Source: an uncultured Candidatus Saccharibacteria bacterium
Lineage (GTDB): Bacteria; Patescibacteriota; Dojkabacteria; J137
DNA: 61,094 nucleotides
Direction of reading: 5' to 3'
Assembly: GCA_964561155.1 (NCBI GenBank)
Contig: CAZLOI010000002.1
Coordinates: 155,629-216,722 of the forward strand
Below are positions 10,699 to 37,621 of this stretch, piece after piece. The position numbers and the translations under genes were made by a program. Position 1 is the stretch's first letter. Every line of letters begins with the position of its first letter. Under the pieces are notes generated by a model. The model was not told the DNA's origin. It worked only from the letters and a program-made list of their open reading frames with translations, and searched no databases.

Positions 10699-11189
10699 TG
10701 GAAGTAGTCAAATCAGGGATTGAATATAGAAGTATTTTGCTTGAGAAACTTAATGAACTCGAGTGCAAAACAACAGCTGCATCTATCAGACAGCAAAATC
10801 CAATAACGCAAGATCAGCTTAGGCAAGGACTGATCAACTTAGATGCTATTCGTTATGAATTACAAAACGAAGCCTGTGCTGAAAAGATCGATAAAGATTT
10901 TGATCTAATCTTTAAGGTAATATCACTTGTAAAGAAAGGTCTTCACAAATCTAAACCATTCACTTACGAAAGTTTTATAGCTTCCGCATCGAAGTATGTT
11001 AATGGTATACGAAATTCTCTTGTATTTAATTTTCTAAGATTCTTCATCGATTTCTGCTTAGAGATATGTGATCTCGATAACGATATAGAAGATGAAGCAA
11101 GACGTGCATTCGAAGACATACTCGTATATTTAAATGTAGAGTCTGTTACTGGAATGAGGTTGCCTGATGGATATCAACCAGAATGCTAA
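10698..11189 (+). CDS. Hypothetical protein
   Basis: 163-aa ORF overlapping the previous stop (TAATG). Confidence 0.6.
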   Translation: MEVVKSGIEYRSILLEKLNELECKTTAASIRQQNPITQDQLRQGLINLDAIRYELQNEACAEKIDKDFDLIFKVISLVKKGLHKSKPFTYESFIASASKYVNGIRNSLVFNFLRFFIDFCLEICDLDNDIEDEARRAFEDILVYLNVESVTGMRLPDGYQPEC

Positions 11190-11221
11190 AAATTAATCTT
11201 CAGATTTCAAAGTATCTAGTA

Positions 11222-11227
11222 TATAAT
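11222..11227 (+). promoter_or_regulatory. -10 box (TATAAT) for a leaderless transcript starting at the uORF ATG
   Basis: TATAAT + 6 nt + ATG at 11234. Confidence 0.65.
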
Positions 11228-11233
11228 CCATTA

Positions 11234-11281
11234 ATGACAAGAGAAATAAACTCAACAAACTTCATATGCTGTTGCTGTTAA
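11234..11281 (+). CDS. Leader peptide MTREINSTNFICCCC (polycysteine uORF, candidate attenuator)
   Basis: ATG ACA AGA GAA ATA AAC TCA ACA AAC TTC ATA TGC TGT TGC TGT TAA read directly from sequence; lies upstream of the PIG-L-cysS operon; too short for the ORF track. Confidence 0.7.
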   Translation: MTREINSTNFICCCC

Positions 11282-11321
11282 AGGAAGATTCTTCATTTCC
11301 TTTATATATTACCTTTAAATC

Positions 11322-12134
11322 ATGTTAACTCTAATAATCTTAATAACAATAATCCTTAGTATATCTGTATACCTGTATCTCATATTTAAATACCAAGACT
11401 TTAAAACAAAGAAGGTTAACGTTGGATACTTCAAAGTAAACAAGTACGAAGTAACAAACATACTATTCATATACCCTCATCCAGATGATGAAACAATGGG
11501 TTCTGGAGGATTAATACAAAAGCTTTCCAGAAACAAAAAGTTCGATGTACATGTAATATCCTTAACTAGAGGCGAGAAAGGAAAAGAACTAAAAAACCTT
11601 CCAGATTCAGAGCTAGCAGAAATACGAACCAAGGAATTTACTAATGCTGTAACAATTTTAGGTGCCAAACAATTTGAAATCTGGAACTATCCAGATGGAA
11701 AGATTGAAGCTTCTGAACAAGAAATAAAGAAGCAGCTTCTTCAATACATCGAAGAACATGAAATCGATACAGTAGTAACGTATGAAAGAACTGGAATATA
11801 TGGTCACAAAGATCATGTTGCACTCTCAAGATATGTTCATGATATTTCAAAACGAAACAAACAACTTAAGGTATTCTATGCAACAATAGCTCCAAAGGTT
11901 GAAGAACTATATAACTTCCCAAAACACATAGTTGGATTAAAGCTAACAAAGAATACATTGTGCGAGAAACCAGAGGTACGTATCAATAAACTGCTCAATA
12001 GCTATCGACAGTATAAAGCTGCAAAAGCACATCGATCACAAAGACTAAATCATATAATGCCTTTGTGGCTAGCTCTTTTATTACAGCCATATGAGTACTA
12101 TACTACTATATACACAGATTCAACTAAATCTTAA
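11322..12134 (+). CDS. PIG-L/LmbE family deacetylase with N-terminal TM helix
   Basis: YPHPDDE, LTRGEKG, YPDGKI, YGHKDH motifs. Confidence 0.88.
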   Translation: MLTLIILITIILSISVYLYLIFKYQDFKTKKVNVGYFKVNKYEVTNILFIYPHPDDETMGSGGLIQKLSRNKKFDVHVISLTRGEKGKELKNLPDSELAEIRTKEFTNAVTILGAKQFEIWNYPDGKIEASEQEIKKQLLQYIEEHEIDTVVTYERTGIYGHKDHVALSRYVHDISKRNKQLKVFYATIAPKVEELYNFPKHIVGLKLTKNTLCEKPEVRINKLLNSYRQYKAAKAHRSQRLNHIMPLWLALLLQPYEYYTTIYTDSTKS

Positions 12135-12143
12135 AACTAGCCT

Positions 12144-13523
12144 ATGAAACTATACGATTCATTACAAAGAGATATTAGAGAATTCACCCCTAGAATTGAA
12201 GGCAAAGTTAGTATGTATACTTGCGGTCCTACGGTATATGACTACCAGCACATTGGAAACCTAAGAACATCAACACTCATGGATACTCTACGAAGAGCAT
12301 TACTATATAGTGGATACGAAGTTGTATCTGTAATGAACGTTACCGATGTAGAAGACAAAATAGAAAACAGAGCGAAGAGAGACAACGTTAAAGTTGATGA
12401 TATAACAAAACAGTTCGAAGCTATATACTTTGAGAACCTTGCAAGCATGAATATTCAAGTGGATCTTGTACCTCATGCAAGTGAACATATTCAAGAACAG
12501 ATTCAGATAATACAGAAACTAATTGAGCAAGGTTACGCATACCAGAATGAGTTTGGAATATATTTCGATATAACAAAAGATACAGACTACGGAAAACTTG
12601 GTAACACATTCAAATCAAACAGAGAGCAGAGTAGGATCGGATTCACAGAAGGAAAGAGAAATCAGGAAGACTTCGCACTATGGAAGTTTCCAATAGAAAA
12701 TGAAGAGAGACAGAAGCTCTGGGAAAGTCCATGGGGGAAAGGTTTTCCAGGATGGCATATAGAATGTAGTGCAATGAGTATGAAGGCTCTTTCAGATGCT
12801 TTTGACAATGCAATATTTGAACCAACTAAATTTGAAACAATAGATATTCATGTTGGAGGAGATGATTTGAAAGAAGTACATCATGAAAATGAAATAGCTC
12901 AGAGTGAATCTGCTACTGGGAAACAGTTTGTAAACTTCTGGGTACACGGAGCTATGCTTAACATTGGAGCTGAAAAGATGAGCAAGAGTCTAGGAAATTT
13001 TTCAACATTAAAGACAGTAATTGACGAAGGTTACGATCCAATACATCTTAGATACCTATACTACAACACTCATTACAGAAAAAATCTAACATTCACATAT
13101 GAATCTCTAGACGCAGCACGAACTGCATACCAAAGACTTGTAGAGAACCTTAGAAACCTTTCACAACAGGTACAAGATATTCCAACACCTGCATTCGTTG
13201 TCGATGAGGAATCAAAGATGCGATTCAAGCAGGCCTTGGAAGATGATCTAAACATGCCTCAAGCACTTTCAGTACTGTGGGAAGTATCGAAGAATCCAAA
13301 TCTAACTGCAGATGTTAAGTTAACTACAATTCTTGATTTCGATAGAGCATTGGGACTAAAGCTAGAAGAAAAGATGTCTGAACCTGTTGAATATTCATCT
13401 GAAATTCAAGAGTTAATTAAGGAAAGAGAAACTGCAAGGAATGAAAAGAACTGGAGCAGAGCAGATGAGATACGAGATATTCTAAAACAGAAGCATAACG
13501 TAGAGGTTAAGGATCGAAGCTAG
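12144..13523 (+). CDS. cysS: Cysteine--tRNA ligase
   Basis: YTCGPTVYDYQHIGN, DFALWK, PGWHIECSAM, DIHVGGDDL..HHENE, KMSKSLGN, C-terminal anticodon-binding region. Confidence 0.97.
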   Translation: MKLYDSLQRDIREFTPRIEGKVSMYTCGPTVYDYQHIGNLRTSTLMDTLRRALLYSGYEVVSVMNVTDVEDKIENRAKRDNVKVDDITKQFEAIYFENLASMNIQVDLVPHASEHIQEQIQIIQKLIEQGYAYQNEFGIYFDITKDTDYGKLGNTFKSNREQSRIGFTEGKRNQEDFALWKFPIENEERQKLWESPWGKGFPGWHIECSAMSMKALSDAFDNAIFEPTKFETIDIHVGGDDLKEVHHENEIAQSESATGKQFVNFWVHGAMLNIGAEKMSKSLGNFSTLKTVIDEGYDPIHLRYLYYNTHYRKNLTFTYESLDAARTAYQRLVENLRNLSQQVQDIPTPAFVVDEESKMRFKQALEDDLNMPQALSVLWEVSKNPNLTADVKLTTILDFDRALGLKLEEKMSEPVEYSSEIQELIKERETARNEKNWSRADEIRDILKQKHNVEVKDRS

Positions 13524-18009: not shown

Positions 18010-18091
18010 TCTCTTATTATATCATTTTAATTACGTAACAATATGTGATACGTTTTATTTGTAGAGGTTATATATTAGCGATATAACGTTA

Positions 18092-18157
18092 CCAGATGTC
18101 GGCAACGGTATCTGGGTGATGGCAATTGTGCCTCACTCGAAACTTAACAACGTGAGG
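18092..18157 (+). promoter_or_regulatory. Structured 5' leader (GNRA hairpin plus mutually exclusive hairpin/anti-SD)
   Basis: CCAGATGTCG-GCAA-CGGTATCTGG; GTGA(T)GGCA-ATTG-TGCCTCAC; CCTCAC (18131-36) complementary to GTGAGG (18152-57). Confidence 0.45.
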
Positions 18158-18167
18158 AAAGTTAGAA

Positions 18168-18350
18168 ATGGGTGATACCCAGAAGAAAATGCAAGAGATG
18201 GGTGTTACATTTGGAAAAGAATTGGGTGGAATGGTACTGATCACTCTACCTGCCGGGTGGTATTTTCGATATGAATCCGGTGTAAAGCGTGTATATGATC
18301 AGTACGGAAACGTTAAGATCAGCCATCAAGATGGGAAAAGATCATCTTAA
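18168..18350 (+). CDS. Small hypothetical protein (60 aa)
   Basis: ATG with upstream GAGGA SD; protein-like composition. Confidence 0.45.
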   Translation: MGDTQKKMQEMGVTFGKELGGMVLITLPAGWYFRYESGVKRVYDQYGNVKISHQDGKRSS

Positions 18351-18539
18351 TAACCGAGGTAAGTCAAAGCAAACCCATCAAGTCTCCATGCGTTCCAAGA
18401 CAGGAGTATTTCATTTCTGGACCGCAATCTAACAATTAACTCACGCGCCCCGTGGTAAAAATCTGGGGACAATCGCTCCTTTCGGAGCAGAGGCCACCTT
18501 AAACAAGTGGCCTCAACCATATATACCTCTTAATCCTAT

Positions 18540-18563
18540 AAAAAATCCCACATTTCTGTGGGA
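18540..18563 (-). terminator. Intrinsic terminator of the fusA transcript
   Basis: TCCCACA-GAAA-TGTGGGA followed by TTTTT on the minus strand. Confidence 0.75.
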
Positions 18564-18584
18564 CTTCCTATACCTTTTATTAAC

Positions 18585-21597: not shown

Positions 21598-22188
21598 ATG
21601 AACGATCAATTCCCAAATACCTACGATGTAGAATCATTAGCAGCAGAGCTTTCTTCAGTTATTAGGCTAGAAGAATGCAATCCAACACCAGCAAGAATGG
21701 AGAGTGTTTCTGATTATGAAGTTAATGCTCTTTTTGTTGAGCTTCTAAAAGAGTTCCCAGATCTACTAAACACAGTACTGCAAGGGCAAAGGAGAGCAAG
21801 GGAGATAAAAACATATAGTCCACCATCTGGAATTCTCGATTACGAAACAACAGGACATGCTTCTTTTCTACGAACGGCTATGCGTTCTATACAAAGTCTT
21901 TTGGAGTTCAAAATATACTTGGACGATCGAACAAGATACGTTAACCCAGTTAACTTAGGAATCTTTCTATTCAACTATCGGAAAGTATTGCAGAACACTG
22001 GGGCAGAAGCTGACGAGGAAAATACGCTTTGGTTAAAAATAGCAGAGAGAATTGGAGTTACAGATACAACAATTAGTCAAATGCAGGAGTATATTAAAAA
22101 ATCTCATAGGAATTCAGCACTTCAAGAAGGTTCTGCATTTGAAAGGCAGGACAGAGCTCTTGCTGCAGAACCTAAATACGAAGCATAA
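21598..22188 (+). CDS. Hypothetical protein
   Basis: 196-aa ORF whose stop abuts tRNA-Thr. Confidence 0.6.
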   Translation: MNDQFPNTYDVESLAAELSSVIRLEECNPTPARMESVSDYEVNALFVELLKEFPDLLNTVLQGQRRAREIKTYSPPSGILDYETTGHASFLRTAMRSIQSLLEFKIYLDDRTRYVNPVNLGIFLFNYRKVLQNTGAEADEENTLWLKIAERIGVTDTTISQMQEYIKKSHRNSALQEGSAFERQDRALAAEPKYEA

Positions 22189-22261
22189 GCCAACGTAGCT
22201 CAATTGGTAGAGCAGCTGTATCGTAAACAGCAGGTTGTGAGTTCGATCCTCACCTTTGGCT
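22189..22261 (+). tRNA. tRNA-Thr(CGT)
   Basis: Cloverleaf: GCCAACG acceptor, AGCTCAATTGGTAGAGC D-arm, GCTGT-ATCGTAA-ACAGC anticodon arm, GTGAG-TTCGATC-CTCAC T-arm; CCA not encoded. Confidence 0.93.
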
Positions 22262-22323
22262 ATTTTCATTGACGCAAATATTATCTGGTGATATAACTTC
22301 TCGATTAATTTTAGAAGAAACCT

Positions 22324-22915: not shown

Positions 22916-23983
22916 ATGGCAGAAAACTCAATCAATAAATATTCTCTTCCATATTTCCGAGAATACATCACAACACTTAGAAACAACAACTATTCCAGAG
23001 AAACCTTGGACAACTATTCACGAGACCTAGAAATCTTCACTTCATACCTATACTACGTTGAAACTCCATTTGAAAAGGTAGACAAGATGACAATCGCTGA
23101 CTACAAAGGTTTCTTGCGAGATCAAAACTATCTTCCAATACTACATAAATTCCAGTCTCAAGAAGAAATAACAGACAAAGATGTAAAGAAAAGTCAGGAA
23201 GACGTTTCAGAACTTAAGAAAGCGATGTACAAGGGACAGCTTTCAGACAACTCAGTAAACAGAATGCTTTCGTCACTGCGATCCTACATGAATTTCTTGG
23301 TAGATATGGACAAACCAGTACCAATACCACCAAGTGCTATTAAGATGATTAAAGCAGAAAAGAAAGAGAAACAAGTAGCTGAACTAAATGAGCTTGTTTC
23401 ATTAATCGAATGTCCTCTTCAATTCGAAGATGACTTAATTGTTAGACATAGAAACAGAGCTATATTGGAACTAATATTCTCTACAGGAATGAGAATTTCA
23501 GAAGTAGTGAATCTAAATAGGGAACATTTCAAGATAGAAGATAACAAGGTAGTTGATAATAAGATATACATTGAAGGTAAAGGAAAGAAACAGCGATTTG
23601 TATACCTTACAGAGCGATCTATCCACTATCTAAACGAATATCTACCAAATAGAGTAGATGAATATCCTGCTATGTTTGTGCCAACAAAAGGAACAAGGAA
23701 AGCAACTAACAATCCATATCTTGTTAGATTGTCTCAAAACTATATTCAAATGAAGATAGCAGAGTATAGAAGGAAACTTGGAATAGTTGTTCCAACATCT
23801 GCACATAGTCTAAGACACGGGTTTGCAACATACATTGCAGAAGAAGGAGCTAATCCTGCTGCTATACAGAAGCTTCTTGGACATTCATCATTACAAACTA
23901 CATCTAAATACGTTCATGCCTCCGACAAGTTTGCAGAGAAAGCTCACAGAGATTTCCACCCATTAAAGGATGACGTTGAATAG
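22916..23983 (+). CDS. Tyrosine recombinase, XerC/XerD-like
   Basis: RNRAILELIFSTGMRISE, GKGKKQR, HSLRHGFAT, LLGHSSLQTTSKY (full R-K-H-R-H-Y set), C-terminal HRDFHP. Confidence 0.9.
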   Translation: MAENSINKYSLPYFREYITTLRNNNYSRETLDNYSRDLEIFTSYLYYVETPFEKVDKMTIADYKGFLRDQNYLPILHKFQSQEEITDKDVKKSQEDVSELKKAMYKGQLSDNSVNRMLSSLRSYMNFLVDMDKPVPIPPSAIKMIKAEKKEKQVAELNELVSLIECPLQFEDDLIVRHRNRAILELIFSTGMRISEVVNLNREHFKIEDNKVVDNKIYIEGKGKKQRFVYLTERSIHYLNEYLPNRVDEYPAMFVPTKGTRKATNNPYLVRLSQNYIQMKIAEYRRKLGIVVPTSAHSLRHGFATYIAEEGANPAAIQKLLGHSSLQTTSKYVHASDKFAEKAHRDFHPLKDDVE

Positions 23984-35029: not shown

Positions 35030-37621
35030 TTAACTCAAGCTTTTTAACACCTTTTCTATATCAATACCTTCACCCAACACACCTTCCCACAAGTCTCCAA
35101 CGGCATCTATTCTTTCCCTCATATTCTTTATATGAAACTTCTTTGGATCCAATCCCGGCTTAACCTCCTCCCATTTAAGTGGAGTAGAGACGGTGGCTCC
35201 TTCTGTAGGACGAACAGAGTATGCACAAGCAGTTGTTTGCCCTTTTCGATTCTGTATATAGTCGATATATACCTTGCCTTTTCTGTCTTCTGGAGATCTC
35301 TCCAGACTAACAATCTTAGGTAACCTATTTTGTATCTTAACCGCAATCAGTTCAGCAAAAATCTTAACCTGTTCAAAATCATACTTCGCATCGAGTGGCA
35401 GATATACATGCAAACCTCTCTTTCCAGAAGTCTTGCAATAGCTTGGAATCTTTAATTCCTCACACAACTCATATATTTCCCTAGCCACCTTCACAACATC
35501 CTTGAAATCAACCTCCACAGGGTCTAGATCGAACAGAACATAGTCAGGGTTCTCTAGAGTATCAATCTTTGAATTCCATGGATTAATCTCAATACAACCA
35601 AGATTAGCCATGAAAAGAAGAGTCTCTTTGTTTTGACAAAGAATATAGTCCACATATTTCTTTGTAGAAGATGAATATATCTTCTTTGTAGATACATATT
35701 CCGGATGTTCATTGTCGTAGTCTTTTTGAAAGAAACTTTCTCCATTAATACCATTTGGATGCCTATTCATATTCTGTGGTCGATCTACTAGATATGGCAT
35801 CATTACATCTCCAATATCGTTGTAGTATTCCAACAAATCTCTCTTTGTATACTTCTCCTTTGGCCAATATATCTTGTCGAGGTTACTAAACTCAAGGTTA
35901 GGTAAACCATTTGTACCACTAGCACCATTTCCAGAGCTATTCGAATCTTCATTCTCAATTTGAGATGCATCTACAATCTTCACTCCAACAACATCTTTTG
36001 CTTTCTTGTCCTTCCTAATTCCTAAATATACTGGGTGTCGTAGTACTTGATCCTCTGTCCATTCACTAAACTTAACCTGAACAACAATCTTTGGTTTAAT
36101 CCATTTCTCTACATTATTACTTGGAACAAAATCGGTATTCTTGAACGGATTCTCCTTAACCTCATATTCATCCATCAATTCCTGAAGTTCCTTCATATTC
36201 TCCGAATTGAATCCAGTACCAACATGTCCTCGATATACAAAGTCTCCATTCACATATTCCCCAATTAGAATGGAACCAAAACGTTTCCTTTCTCCTTTTG
36301 GTTTAGTGTATCCACCAATTACAAATTCCTGCTCATTAACCGCCTTAACCTTCAACCAATCCTTGCTTCGATCAGAACTGTAGGTAGAATCCTTTCTCTT
36401 TGCAACAACTCCTTCCATTCCCAAATGTTTTGCACTTTCAAACAATTCAATCCCATCCTTAAAGGTTTCACTTAAACGAACAACGTTGTTTGGTTTAACC
36501 ACTTCTTTTAATATCTCAAGTCTTTTTTCCAAACTCATTCCCCTTAAATCAAACTTGTCGAAATACAAAATATCAAAAACGTAGTACAGTAGTTTCTGGT
36601 TAGAATCTTTGTTCTTCTTTTTGTTTTGAAGTAACTGAAATCTAGAAACACCATCTTCATCTACAGCTACAACCTCTCCATCAAGTACCATGTTCCCTGG
36701 AATCTTTTCAAGCTCAGTAACAATCTCTGGGAAATCTTTGTTAAAGTCCTGATCGTTTCTAGAGTATAGACGTACCTTTCCATTCTTGATTTGAGCCAAA
36801 GCTCTGTATCCGTCCCACTTTAATTCATATATCCAATCAGAATTAGTGAATGGTTCATCGGCAAGGGATGCAAGCATTGGAGATATGGATTCAGGTAGAG
36901 GAGCTTTCTTTGGTTCTTCCGAACTATCGCTTATCAATTCTTTTGTATCAAAGTTACTTTCATTCTCTTTCTTTTTCTCTTTATCTTTAGAACTTTGTAT
37001 ATCAACTTCTTCAAACTCCACTTTCTCTTTTGGTTTACCTTCAGATATTTCCTTTAATGTTCTTCCTGAAACTACAGAAACATCTTCATGAGATATGGCT
37101 TTGTTTGCATATTCATCGTTGTGTTTTATAAGGAGCCAGACGTTTTTGTCTTTGCTTCCAAACTTGTCCTTTGGCTTTATCTTGAATATAGCGAATTCAC
37201 CATTTAGCTTCTTTCCAAATAGCTTAAATTTTAAGTGCCCATCTTTTAAGTGTCTTGATACTGCATCTTCATCTGATTCCTTTTCATCTTTAATTATTGG
37301 TTCAAAGAAACCATTGTCCCAAATCATAACGGTACCTGCACCATAGTTACCTTCAGGAATTGTTCCTTCAAACTTGTTGTATTCGATAGGGTGATCTTCA
37401 ACTTCCATAGCAAGTCTTCGCTCCTTCGGATTAAGTGTTGGACCTTTTGGAACTGCCCAACTTCTCATAACACCTTCGTTTTCTAGTCGAAGATCGAAGT
37501 GTAGTTGAGATGCATGGTGTTTTTGAATAACGAAACGAAGCTTGGAACCAGGCTTTTCAACCTTTCCTTCAGGTTCTGGTGTCTCTTTAAAGTTTCTTTT
37601 CTGATTGTATTTATTAAGCAT
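35030..37621 (-). CDS. ligD: NHEJ DNA ligase D (phosphoesterase-ligase-polymerase)
   Basis: PE: FVIQKHHASQLHFDLRLE; ligase: YELKWDGYR, EGVVAK, WLKVK; polymerase: FDLDP, KTSGKRGLH, YSVRP. Confidence 0.96.
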   Translation of the reverse strand: MLNKYNQKRNFKETPEPEGKVEKPGSKLRFVIQKHHASQLHFDLRLENEGVMRSWAVPKGPTLNPKERRLAMEVEDHPIEYNKFEGTIPEGNYGAGTVMIWDNGFFEPIIKDEKESDEDAVSRHLKDGHLKFKLFGKKLNGEFAIFKIKPKDKFGSKDKNVWLLIKHNDEYANKAISHEDVSVVSGRTLKEISEGKPKEKVEFEEVDIQSSKDKEKKKENESNFDTKELISDSSEEPKKAPLPESISPMLASLADEPFTNSDWIYELKWDGYRALAQIKNGKVRLYSRNDQDFNKDFPEIVTELEKIPGNMVLDGEVVAVDEDGVSRFQLLQNKKKNKDSNQKLLYYVFDILYFDKFDLRGMSLEKRLEILKEVVKPNNVVRLSETFKDGIELFESAKHLGMEGVVAKRKDSTYSSDRSKDWLKVKAVNEQEFVIGGYTKPKGERKRFGSILIGEYVNGDFVYRGHVGTGFNSENMKELQELMDEYEVKENPFKNTDFVPSNNVEKWIKPKIVVQVKFSEWTEDQVLRHPVYLGIRKDKKAKDVVGVKIVDASQIENEDSNSSGNGASGTNGLPNLEFSNLDKIYWPKEKYTKRDLLEYYNDIGDVMMPYLVDRPQNMNRHPNGINGESFFQKDYDNEHPEYVSTKKIYSSSTKKYVDYILCQNKETLLFMANLGCIEINPWNSKIDTLENPDYVLFDLDPVEVDFKDVVKVAREIYELCEELKIPSYCKTSGKRGLHVYLPLDAKYDFEQVKIFAELIAVKIQNRLPKIVSLERSPEDRKGKVYIDYIQNRKGQTTACAYSVRPTEGATVSTPLKWEEVKPGLDPKKFHIKNMRERIDAVGDLWEGVLGEGIDIEKVLKSLS

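Follow-up and report, generated by a model that had tools for sequence, protein, structure and literature searches.

How does a bacterium belonging to the Candidate Phyla Radiation (CPR) adjust the synthesis of its cysteinyl-tRNA synthetase (CysRS) to the supply of cysteine? The genomes of CPR/Patescibacteria are tiny, with few transcription factors and without amino-acid biosynthesis, and to our knowledge almost nothing is known about their gene regulation. The question is raised by a locus on contig CAZLOI010000002.1 of an uncultured Candidatus Saccharibacteria bacterium, within a stretch of 61,094 nucleotides (nt) that was analysed as a whole and is called the window below. Here, a 15-codon open reading frame (ORF) ending in four cysteine codons lies directly upstream of an operon comprised of a PIG-L family gene and cysS, and an earlier note on this DNA had proposed that the short ORF is a cysteine-responsive attenuator. 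Combined, the comparative and folding results presented here suggest that the feature is probably a ribosome-mediated, cysteine-sensing leader of the PIG-L-cysS operon. The sensor identity, in which the leader ORF reads charged tRNA-Cys, is considered highly likely, while a translational output step at the locus in the window is put forward tentatively, with slightly less than even confidence.

The leader ORF and its association with cysS

The features of the locus are given below in window coordinates.

11199 to 11204, plus strand: -35-like hexamer TTCAGA, from a promoter scan (TTCAGA, 17 nt, TATAAT; 10 of 12 matches in all)
11222 to 11227, plus strand: -10 hexamer TATAAT, read directly, followed by CCATTA (6 nt) and then by the ATG at 11234 to 11236
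11234 to 11281, plus strand: leader ORF MTREINSTNFICCCC-stop, 15 codons, putatively leaderless, from direct reading and the ORF list
11266 to 11328, plus strand: overlapping 20-codon ORF MLLLLKEDSSFPLYITFKSC-stop, of doubtful status, with an ATG overlapping the first Cys codon and a stop 4 nt inside PIG-L
11267 to 11278, plus strand: four Cys codons TGC TGT TGC TGT (codons 12 to 15), the proposed sensing codons, followed by TAA at 11279 to 11281
11279 to 11287, plus strand: arm A, TAAAGGAAG, the stop TAA plus AGGAAG, 5' hairpin arm in the RNAfold pairing
11288 to 11295, plus strand: hairpin loop of 8 nt between arms A and B
11296 to 11304, plus strand: arm B, TTTCCTTTA, 3' hairpin arm in the RNAfold pairing
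11297 to 11318, plus strand: G-free invariant block of 22 nt, TTCCTTTATATATTACCTTTAA, identical in the window and in loci L184, L187, L189 and L190
11312 to 11318, plus strand: box C, CCTTTAA, at -10 to -4 relative to the PIG-L start, able to pair with arm A in place of arm B (TTAAAGG, 7 base pairs)
11322 to 12134, plus strand: PIG-L/LmbE-family de-N-acetylase with an N-terminal hydrophobic segment, putative first regulated gene (Pfam PF02585, E 4.9e-32)
12144 to 13523, plus strand: cysS, cysteine--tRNA ligase, putative second regulated gene, 9 nt past the PIG-L stop (PF01406, E 1.8e-98)

The leader ORF lies on the same strand as PIG-L and cysS, with 40 nt between its stop and PIG-L. The synthetase is a true CysRS, scoring 433.6 bits with the NCBIfam CysRS model TIGR00435 (cut-off 340) and 199.7 with the MshC model (cut-off 485). 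For the PIG-L protein, the top NCBIfam matches are BshB2, MshB and Mca, all of them under their cut-offs, and the nearest solved structures are those of diacetylchitobiose deacetylases and MshB. The earlier note had read the TATAAT box, the 6-nt gap, the ATG, the four-Cys ORF and the 9-base-pair (bp) hairpin overlapping the stop correctly, and the second CCTTTA (11312 to 11317) and the 9-nt spacing of cysS behind PIG-L are likewise present.

Across all six reading frames of the window, a run of four Cys residues (CCCC) is encoded only at 11267, and Cys accounts for 0.65% of the residues in the long ORFs of the window; the five other runs of three Cys are all within, or antisense to, long ORFs. 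According to second-order Markov simulations of 61 kb in six frames, 0.195 CCCC are expected per 61 kb and about 2e-4 in the 130-nt sense-strand intergenic region. A functionless chance ORF in an A+T-rich, promoter-proximal spacer would agree with the 18% of simulations that contained at least one CCCC in the six frames of 61 kb, and with a hairpin that is ordinary. This reading is effectively refuted by the comparative data and is regarded as hardly credible, as more than 20 independent loci repeat the position, the strand, the start geometry and the Cys cluster, all of which go along with cysS, and as the leader is much more conserved than its flanks in the nearest relatives.

For this comparison, PIG-L loci (numbered with the prefix L) were gathered from genome and metagenome collections, and nearer relatives were obtained by protein search and contig look-ups. 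The genomes are labelled Dojkabacteria, Saccharibacteria, WWE3 or Patescibacteria, and the labels of several assemblies are unreliable. The closest PIG-L protein is 54% identical in the species-representative genome set and 43% identical in the metagenome contig collection; judged by the former value, no near relative of this CPR bacterium is represented among sequenced species. Adjacency of PIG-L and cysS is kept in 35 non-redundant CPR loci, and a short ATG- or GTG-initiated upstream ORF (uORF) with a Cys cluster lies just before PIG-L on the sense strand in 19 of these 35 operons, vs. 2 of the 59 PIG-L loci without adjacent cysS (Fisher p = 1.5e-8, with the loci counted as independent). Of 36 loci, 17-20 gave a match on the sense strand and 0 gave one on the antisense strand, and random 250-nt segments of the same loci contained a short ORF with CC in 3.1% and with CCC in 0.1% of cases. 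Assembly duplicates of one lineage are excluded as the source of the related loci because the sequences diverge. The earlier note had suggested looking for Cys-rich uORFs before the cysS operons of related genomes, and the outcome of that search was clearly positive.

The Cys cluster is the sole peptide feature common to the family, the remaining peptide being unrelated between clades, as illustrated by MNDFNYSVCCCTPKF, MKRLLIKNSVCCCLPD, MNKFSITKFSCCSFR, MKQSQTVSCCCSLS, MSNQITKIKNKLDNCCCC, MKKDATKQVLLCPYCC and MEKNARPQSLLCPYC. Number and spacing of the Cys residues vary (CC, CCC, CCCC, CNC, CPYC), and the peptides are 6-27 residues long. Because only the Cys cluster is kept between clades, a regulatory rather than a functional peptide is favoured. 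A functional Cys-rich micropeptide that would be co-expressed with the operon in place of a sensor, for instance a redox or metal-binding one with a CPYC-like motif or one serving as a substrate of PIG-L or CysRS, is suggested by the C-P-[YF]-C(C) C-terminus found in several clades (L184-L193, L001, L002, L195, L044), CPYC being the classical glutaredoxin active-site motif. This explanation is judged very improbable: nothing is conserved outside the Cys cluster, in which Cys number and spacing vary along with peptide length; the window itself exchanged P-Y for C-C; RNA switch elements are linked to the ends of the ORF; and sister lineages replace the ORF by a T-box-like RNA and by no other peptide.

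The start of the family uORFs was compared with the promoter positions. In 15 of 19 leaders, the start codon follows 5-9 nt after a -10 hexamer that matches at 5 or more of its 6 positions, vs. 2.75% of all ATGs in the loci, several leaders additionally carry an extended TG or a perfect TTGACA -35 element, and no Shine-Dalgarno sequence was found before the start codons of the family uORFs. A leaderless mRNA is therefore well supported for the uORF family by the spacing of the promoter elements, and the leaderless start claimed for the window is in line with it. For the window itself, the transcription start is predicted from the -10 spacing to lie at or next to A11234, and no Shine-Dalgarno sequence lies upstream of the leader ORF start. 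A Shine-Dalgarno-like motif precedes 5 of the 54 long ORFs in the window.

Several further readings of the leader were considered and rejected. A 32-residue version of the ORF from the in-frame ATG at 11183 has no start codon at that position in the relatives, and a short AUU-initiated ORF within the leader is not conserved (UAU in L184). The AAAGGAAG arm was discarded as a Shine-Dalgarno sequence, with 5 of 54 window genes having such a motif and no start codon at the right distance. The element TATATATTAC, considered as a promoter-like motif in common with gene 48845, occurs at chance frequency (15 vs. 11.3 expected).

As a side observation on start geometry, perfect TATAAT boxes in the window mostly lie 19-26 nt before an ATG, and a few lie at 6-7 nt (genes 13557 and 55345, and the uORF); gene 13557, with its box 6-7 nt before the start, is the gene that follows cysS. 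The pattern suggests short unstructured leaders and a minority of leaderless mRNAs in this genome. Inspection of the sequence upstream of the other synthetase gene in the window, metG (672 to 2147), revealed no leader ORF.

T-box-like leaders and output designs at orthologous operons

The direction of control is indicated by a second type of leader. In seven orthologous PIG-L-cysS operons (L006-L009, L013, L049, L050), the uORF is replaced by a T-box-like leader, located in two of these related CPR genomes as follows.

L006, 3790 to 3982: T-box-like leader of the same operon
L007, 3787 to 3979: T-box-like leader of the same operon

These leaders of about 190 nt contain two stems with covariation, an A-rich stretch with an invariant UGC, and a strong terminator, and they share the motif CAGG-UGGGACC-GC ... 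GC-CCUG, which we take to be the T-box antiterminator architecture. In the Rfam search, T-box ranked first for L007 with 17.6 bits (E 0.051; gathering score 93), and nothing was returned for L013; because the score is far below the gathering threshold, the leaders are named T-box-like only. Standard annotation would miss such leaders in CPR genomes. As two unrelated devices read the tRNA-Cys status at this operon, the operon is expected to be induced when Cys-tRNA is scarce. The earlier proposal that ribosome stalling raises CysRS expression is thus supported in its direction by the T-box-like leaders on orthologous operons. No T-box was detected in the window itself: Rfam returned four tRNAs at the gathering threshold and only noise between 11100 and 11400 at E <= 10, and the GGUGGNACC / GGUGGNACCGC motif is absent by eye.

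Among the leaders with a uORF, many end in a G+C-rich hairpin followed by a U-run, which is the terminator type. A copy of the terminator 3' arm lies 4-8 nt past the uORF stop in L003, L005, L018, L044, L063, L068 and L156 and overlaps the stop in L107, and a copy of the terminator 5' arm lies 12 nt before the stop, directly after the Cys codons, in L003, L005, L063, L068 and L156. By this arrangement of complementary segments, the terminator-type leaders are predicted to have the four-segment layout of the trp attenuator. In constrained folds of L003, L016, L063 and L068, for which the ribosome was masked with generic footprint values, a ribosome on the Cys codons led to the antiterminator and a ribosome at the stop codon led to the terminator. 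Across the uORF leaders, the 64-nt region at and past the uORF stop also folds more strongly than random segments (median -15.3 vs. -8.6 kcal/mol, p = 5e-7).

A second, start-masking design without a U-tail was found in the sister clade (L191-L193) and in L001 and L002, with PIG-L proteins 53-58% identical to that of the window. Here, the last Cys codons and the stop, UGUUGUUGA, are paired with CAACAA just before the PIG-L AUG, and in L191-L193, placing the last Cys codon in the A site raises the unpaired probability of positions -18 to -1 from 0.19-0.30 to 0.73-0.83. A further leader, that of L122, combines CCCC-stop, an 8-bp hairpin starting at the stop, a U-rich tail and 38 nt to the ATG in a sequence unrelated to that of the window. 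One operon appears to offer a natural experiment with three read-outs across related lineages (terminator/antiterminator, start masking and T-box).

Additional observations were made on individual members of the family. The C-P-[YF]-C(C) C-terminus mentioned above is shared by the uORFs of L184-L193, L001, L002, L195 and L044 despite differing output structures, CCCC in its place is seen in the window alone, and in L044 and L195 the Pro codon provides the C-rich segment 1 of the switch. In L122 (1214-1320, Dojkabacteria, MSNQITKIKNKLDNCCCC-stop), uORF codons 2-4, AGUAAUCAAA, have a perfect 10-nt complement in UUUGAUUACU, which lies shortly before the PIG-L AUG, so that the 5' end is paired over a long range with the next start site; the other folded leaders show such 5'-end pairing less clearly, and the window fold contains a weak 7-bp counterpart. 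The leader of L060 (1400-1486) has a terminator and an antiterminator as in L018 with an ORF, MSKIYSEDSGCGPR-stop, that contains a single Cys, and the family member may here have decayed or been retuned. PIG-L genes without a neighbouring cysS also have a Cys-cluster uORF before them in loci where the next gene encodes an M20 peptidase (L045) or RNase J (L012). From such loci, PIG-L itself may be part of a cysteine regulon, the proposed members of which may include the PIG-L amidase/deacetylase, CysRS and, in one genome, the M20 peptidase. A role of PIG-L in releasing or salvaging cysteine is a guess, its best family matches, the thiol-pathway enzymes BshB2, MshB and Mca, being below cut-off.

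Conserved pairing elements and the output step in the window

Three further distinct leaders homologous to that of the window were found (L184/186, L187/188 and L189/190), with PIG-L proteins 64-68% identical to that of the window. According to their alignment (A3), the leader is far more conserved than the flanks among these nearest relatives. The promoter is part of this conservation: TCTTnnGATTT around the -35-like TTCAGA is invariant across the four nearest relatives, and TATCTAGTATATAATCC at the -10 box is kept in L184, L187 and L190, with L189 one hexamer base short. Apart from that base, the -10 box is invariant in the subclade, and so are the start codon and the first Cys codon, followed by CTGTTAAAGGAA, the CTTC of the loop and TTCCTTTATATATTACCTTTAA; TGTTAAAGGAA is also kept. 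In the arm A region, CTGTTAAAGGAA is identical in all five sequences of the alignment, and in the arm B region TTCCTTTA is invariant in the relatives. Both arms and box C are unchanged, and the stop and the ATG are always 40 nt apart. The 22-nt block TTCCTTTATATATTACCTTTAA, which is single-copy in the window, was kept while the uORF N-terminus and PIG-L diverged. Variation within the subclade is found in the N-terminal two-thirds of the uORF and in most of the loop, the latter being, except for CTTC, the sole variable stretch from the uORF stop to the PIG-L start. At the same position as the leader ORF of the window, the relatives carry MEKNARPQSLLCPYC-stop and similar uORFs ending in LLCPYC-stop. 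By comparison with them, the window has turned a Pro and a Tyr codon into Cys codons, which would give four stall sites with footprints progressively covering arm A.

Arms A and B form a hairpin of eight Watson-Crick pairs and one G-U pair that is predicted by RNAfold and amounts to -6.2 kcal/mol alone; in the centroid fold of the window, the Cys codons are outside any stem. The alternative pairing of arm A with box C is less stable than A:B by 3.7 kcal/mol in the window, 2.6 in L184 and 0.7 in L187, and in L190 it is 1.2 kcal/mol more stable and constitutes the minimum-energy fold. Box C is located where the sister clade carries its start-sequestering arm. The TAAAGG/CCTTTA switch of the earlier note remains a proposal: both boxes are invariant in the four nearest relatives and A:C wins in L190, while A:B wins in the window, where the position of the ribosome makes no difference to the predicted access to the PIG-L start.

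From these elements, the following sequence of events is proposed. Transcription would start about 7 nt past TATAAT, at the A of the ATG at 11234 as judged from the spacing, so that the mRNA would begin with the start codon of the 15-codon ORF. A ribosome loading on this leaderless end would meet the Cys codons (12-15) that immediately precede the stop. Under a shortage of charged tRNA-Cys, the ribosome would dwell there, its footprint covering the stop and the adjoining AAAGGAAG of arm A; given the usual ribosome footprint, arm A should be covered when Cys codons 13-15 are in the A site. Arm A could then pair with neither of its conserved partners, TTTCCTTTA (arm B) or CCTTTAA (box C), and the G-free leader without a Shine-Dalgarno sequence would remain open for initiation at PIG-L, with cysS following 9 nt after that gene. 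When Cys-tRNA is plentiful, the ribosome would terminate and depart, arm A would re-pair, and expression would be lower. The analysis shows the anatomy of the leader, its conservation, its link to cysS, its leaderless geometry and the switch designs of relatives, which use a terminator and antiterminator or a helix over the PIG-L start. The conclusion from sequence comparison and folding is that arm A would be the element that the stalled ribosome takes out of play, and we infer that the version in the window acts on translation and not on termination, with re-pairing of arm A being inhibitory.

The translational output is favoured for several reasons. One is used by the sister clade; the real terminators of the lineage are G+C-rich hairpins with U-runs, unlike A:B; a hairpin at the stop codon would be hidden by a stalled ribosome just as much as by a terminating one; and in a Shine-Dalgarno-poor genome, initiation should need an open leader. 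Additionally, a structure-based translational output fits the rarity of Shine-Dalgarno sequences (5/54) and the lack of enrichment of canonical terminators: terminator-like sites in the genome show no excess over shuffled sequences (10 vs. 9.7 and 7 vs. 9.8), and convergent gene ends are without them. A canonical intrinsic terminator in the leader of the window was rejected, as none was called by the terminator scan.

The same sensor could instead act through transcription attenuation, with the A:B hairpin and TATATATT forming a weak intrinsic terminator that is blocked by the stalled ribosome. Most other family members have a terminator after the uORF, the U/A-rich tail after the A:B hairpin is invariant in the relatives, and L122, though differing in sequence, shares the design (CCCC-stop, 8-bp hairpin, U-rich tail, 38 nt to the ATG). 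Against this output, the A:B stem has only two G-C pairs and -6.2 kcal/mol, its tail has no U-run, and the terminator scan makes no call there, whereas terminators of the lineage are G+C-rich with U-runs, e.g., GCCCAGAAATGGGC plus a T-run upstream of the promoter in L184-L190. Moreover, the sister-clade hairpins are entirely without a U-tail, and a hairpin that begins at the stop codon would be covered by a stalled and a terminating ribosome alike, so that discrimination should be poor. Attenuation at this locus is therefore considered unlikely.

A second variant keeps the sensor and assigns the output to the overlapping ORF at 11266-11328, on which ribosomes would restart after the uORF at an AUG 13 nt upstream of the uORF stop. 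Reading the leader in a second frame and on across the PIG-L start, they would block or relay PIG-L initiation, and a Cys-stalled ribosome on the AUG would halt this traffic. The window and its four nearest relatives all have the ORF, including its AUG (a codon ending in A plus UGY) and an identically placed stop (TAA, TGA or TAG), the latter lying in the window within the ATGTTAA of PIG-L; the variant would account for the unusually strong conservation from stop to start and would suit a genome with hardly any Shine-Dalgarno use. However, the substitutions counted on alignment A3 number 4/2/3 at codon positions 1/2/3 and give no indication of selection at the protein level, and the ORF is missing from the sister clade and from L122. 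A stop at this place is expected in 3/4 of cases, given that PIG-L codon 2 is UUR followed by a purine, and nucleotide conservation alone gives the same picture. The overlapping 20-codon ORF is thus probably a by-product of nucleotide conservation, and an output through it, whether by blocking or by relaying PIG-L initiation, is thought improbable. Hungry-codon frameshifting from the uORF into the overlapping ORF was likewise rejected, with no conserved slippery context being found (the preceding codon is AUA, UUA or CUA).

Returning to the cysteine-sensing leader with translational output, several results weigh against it. The A:B hairpin is weak and unremarkable, 9-bp hairpins beginning about 1.5 times per kb and strand; compared with random window segments, the 64-nt segment reaches the 54th percentile in folding, and the folding z-score of the leader as a whole is +0.16. 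A stalled ribosome leaves the access predicted for the PIG-L start of the window unchanged (0.79 vs. 0.84). Masking of the PIG-L start by the leader was considered and is not predicted for the window, as the partition function gave the same access (0.79-0.84) whether the leader was free, carried a ribosome at its first Cys codon, at its last Cys codon or at the stop codon, or carried a disome. Since the A:B ground state leaves box C free in both states, the model leaves repression by re-pairing unexplained. No covariation can be seen within the subclade, its arms being invariant. On the comparative side, about 7-9 PIG-L-cysS operons have neither a Cys uORF nor a T-box-like leader, and the statistics linking the uORF to cysS treat the loci as independent and ignore shared ancestry.

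A more specific and more speculative picture, to which we give rather low probability, would describe the output of the subclade as a three-box element, with arm A over the stop and two identical conserved partners, one of them over the next start region, in a G-free leader that has no Shine-Dalgarno sequence and possibly contains a relay ORF. In its wider form, this picture would include a small cysteine-salvage regulon in CPR bacteria, with leader-peptide and T-box sensors having been swapped repeatedly at the operon.

Comparison with described systems and other features of the window

Leader-peptide control by regulatory codons is well established in the classical attenuators of E. coli (trpL, hisL, pheL, and pheM of pheST), and pheST is a precedent for a synthetase gene under leader-peptide control. 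The same logic would apply here, with regulatory codons in a short leader ORF and translation choosing between RNA pairings, and the four-segment layout recurs in CPR relatives with segment 1 in the ORF after the regulatory codons and segment 2 after the stop. Unlike the classical attenuators, which use a Shine-Dalgarno start and intrinsic termination, the leader of the window is putatively leaderless, has its sensing codons at the stop and has no canonical terminator. A Cys (UGC) T-box before cysS shares the gene and the signal (uncharged tRNA-Cys), and T-box-like leaders occur on orthologous CPR operons; a T-box differs in contacting the tRNA directly by RNA-RNA pairing, with no translation needed.

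A close parallel in design is the group of leaderless polycysteine short ORFs of mycobacteria (Ms5788A, the 'Cys ribulon'), which were tested experimentally and act at the translational level (Canestrari et al.; bioRxiv 10.1101/834739); the mycobacterial precedent invoked by the earlier note is therefore real. In both cases, a leaderless mRNA would start at a short ORF that is the first cistron of a cysteine-linked operon, with at least two consecutive Cys codons in mycobacteria and four in the window. An Ms5788A-like duplex of the Cys and stop codons with the PIG-L start is predicted in the sister clade (L191-L193), where start masking by this pairing would correspond to the translational mechanism of Ms5788A. 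The systems differ in phylum and in targets, which are cysteine biosynthesis and mycothiol loci in mycobacteria and PIG-L and CysRS here, and no sequence homology is expected, suggesting independent origins. The window also differs in having no predicted start masking (0.79 to 0.84) and few Shine-Dalgarno sequences to mask, and many CPR members appear to use intrinsic terminators.

Two further systems place Cys codons before cysS. In Rhodobacterales, the uORFC-8-2 motif is a predicted terminator-based attenuator before cysS that would raise CysRS at low Cys-tRNA (Brewer et al. 2021, PMC8632094). The terminator-type CPR leaders (L003, L005, L018, L156 and others) follow the same plan, whereas uORFC-8-2 is alphaproteobacterial, lies directly before cysS, is not described as leaderless and is a prediction only. 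The motif has two stems, the first with the Cys codons, and a 3' U-run terminator; the leader in the window has tandem Cys codons, but it contains neither a Cys-codon stem nor a terminator, its ORF is putatively leaderless, and PIG-L lies between it and cysS. By these differences in sequence organization, the window appears not to be a member of uORFC-8-2 and is at most analogous. The cysS mRNA of Deinococcus deserti carries a leaderless 10-residue leader with two Cys and a mapped start at the AUG, which was proposed as an attenuation peptide (de Groot et al. 2014, PMC4007540). It shares the leaderless start, the Cys codons and cysS with the window, and it differs in coming from a single species of another phylum, in having two Cys and a cysS with its own Shine-Dalgarno sequence, and in the start being mapped and not, as in the window, predicted from sequence only; no family-wide comparison or switch structure was reported for it.

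Full-text literature searches found no report of leader-peptide attenuation in CPR/Patescibacteria. The earlier note's statement that no such CPR attenuator had been reported stands in these searches, with Cys leaders before cysS being known from the two studies above (PMC8632094, PMC4007540). The principle itself is not new; new here is a putative CPR-wide family that joins the leaderless polycysteine sensor to the control of cysS, with at least two predicted output designs and a T-box-like alternative. If the reading is true, CPR organisms monitor tRNA charging directly by the ribosome, through a cis-acting, protein-free sensor before the CysRS operon, and the family provides sequence-level evidence of functional leaderless translation in CPR bacteria. 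The link of a PIG-L enzyme to cysteine supply would also be a testable clue to how these symbionts get cysteine.

Three observations concern other parts of the window. On the minus strand, an ORF-poor stretch downstream of fusA (18010 to 18584) has 42-46% G+C vs. about 35% for the genome and folds at -181.8 kcal/mol (z = -7.1 vs. shuffles; plus strand z = -4.8). For this stretch, Rfam gave only noise at E <= 1, ARAGORN found no transfer-messenger RNA, and the flanking small ORFs had no Pfam match; from its predicted folding, it is a candidate for a large structured non-coding RNA. A tyrosine recombinase gene of the phage-integrase family (22916 to 23983) lies about 650 nt downstream of a tRNA-Thr gene (22188 to 22262). 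Finally, a full three-domain LigD (phosphoesterase, ligase and primase-polymerase) is encoded at 35030 to 37621, which is seemingly much repair machinery for a small CPR genome.

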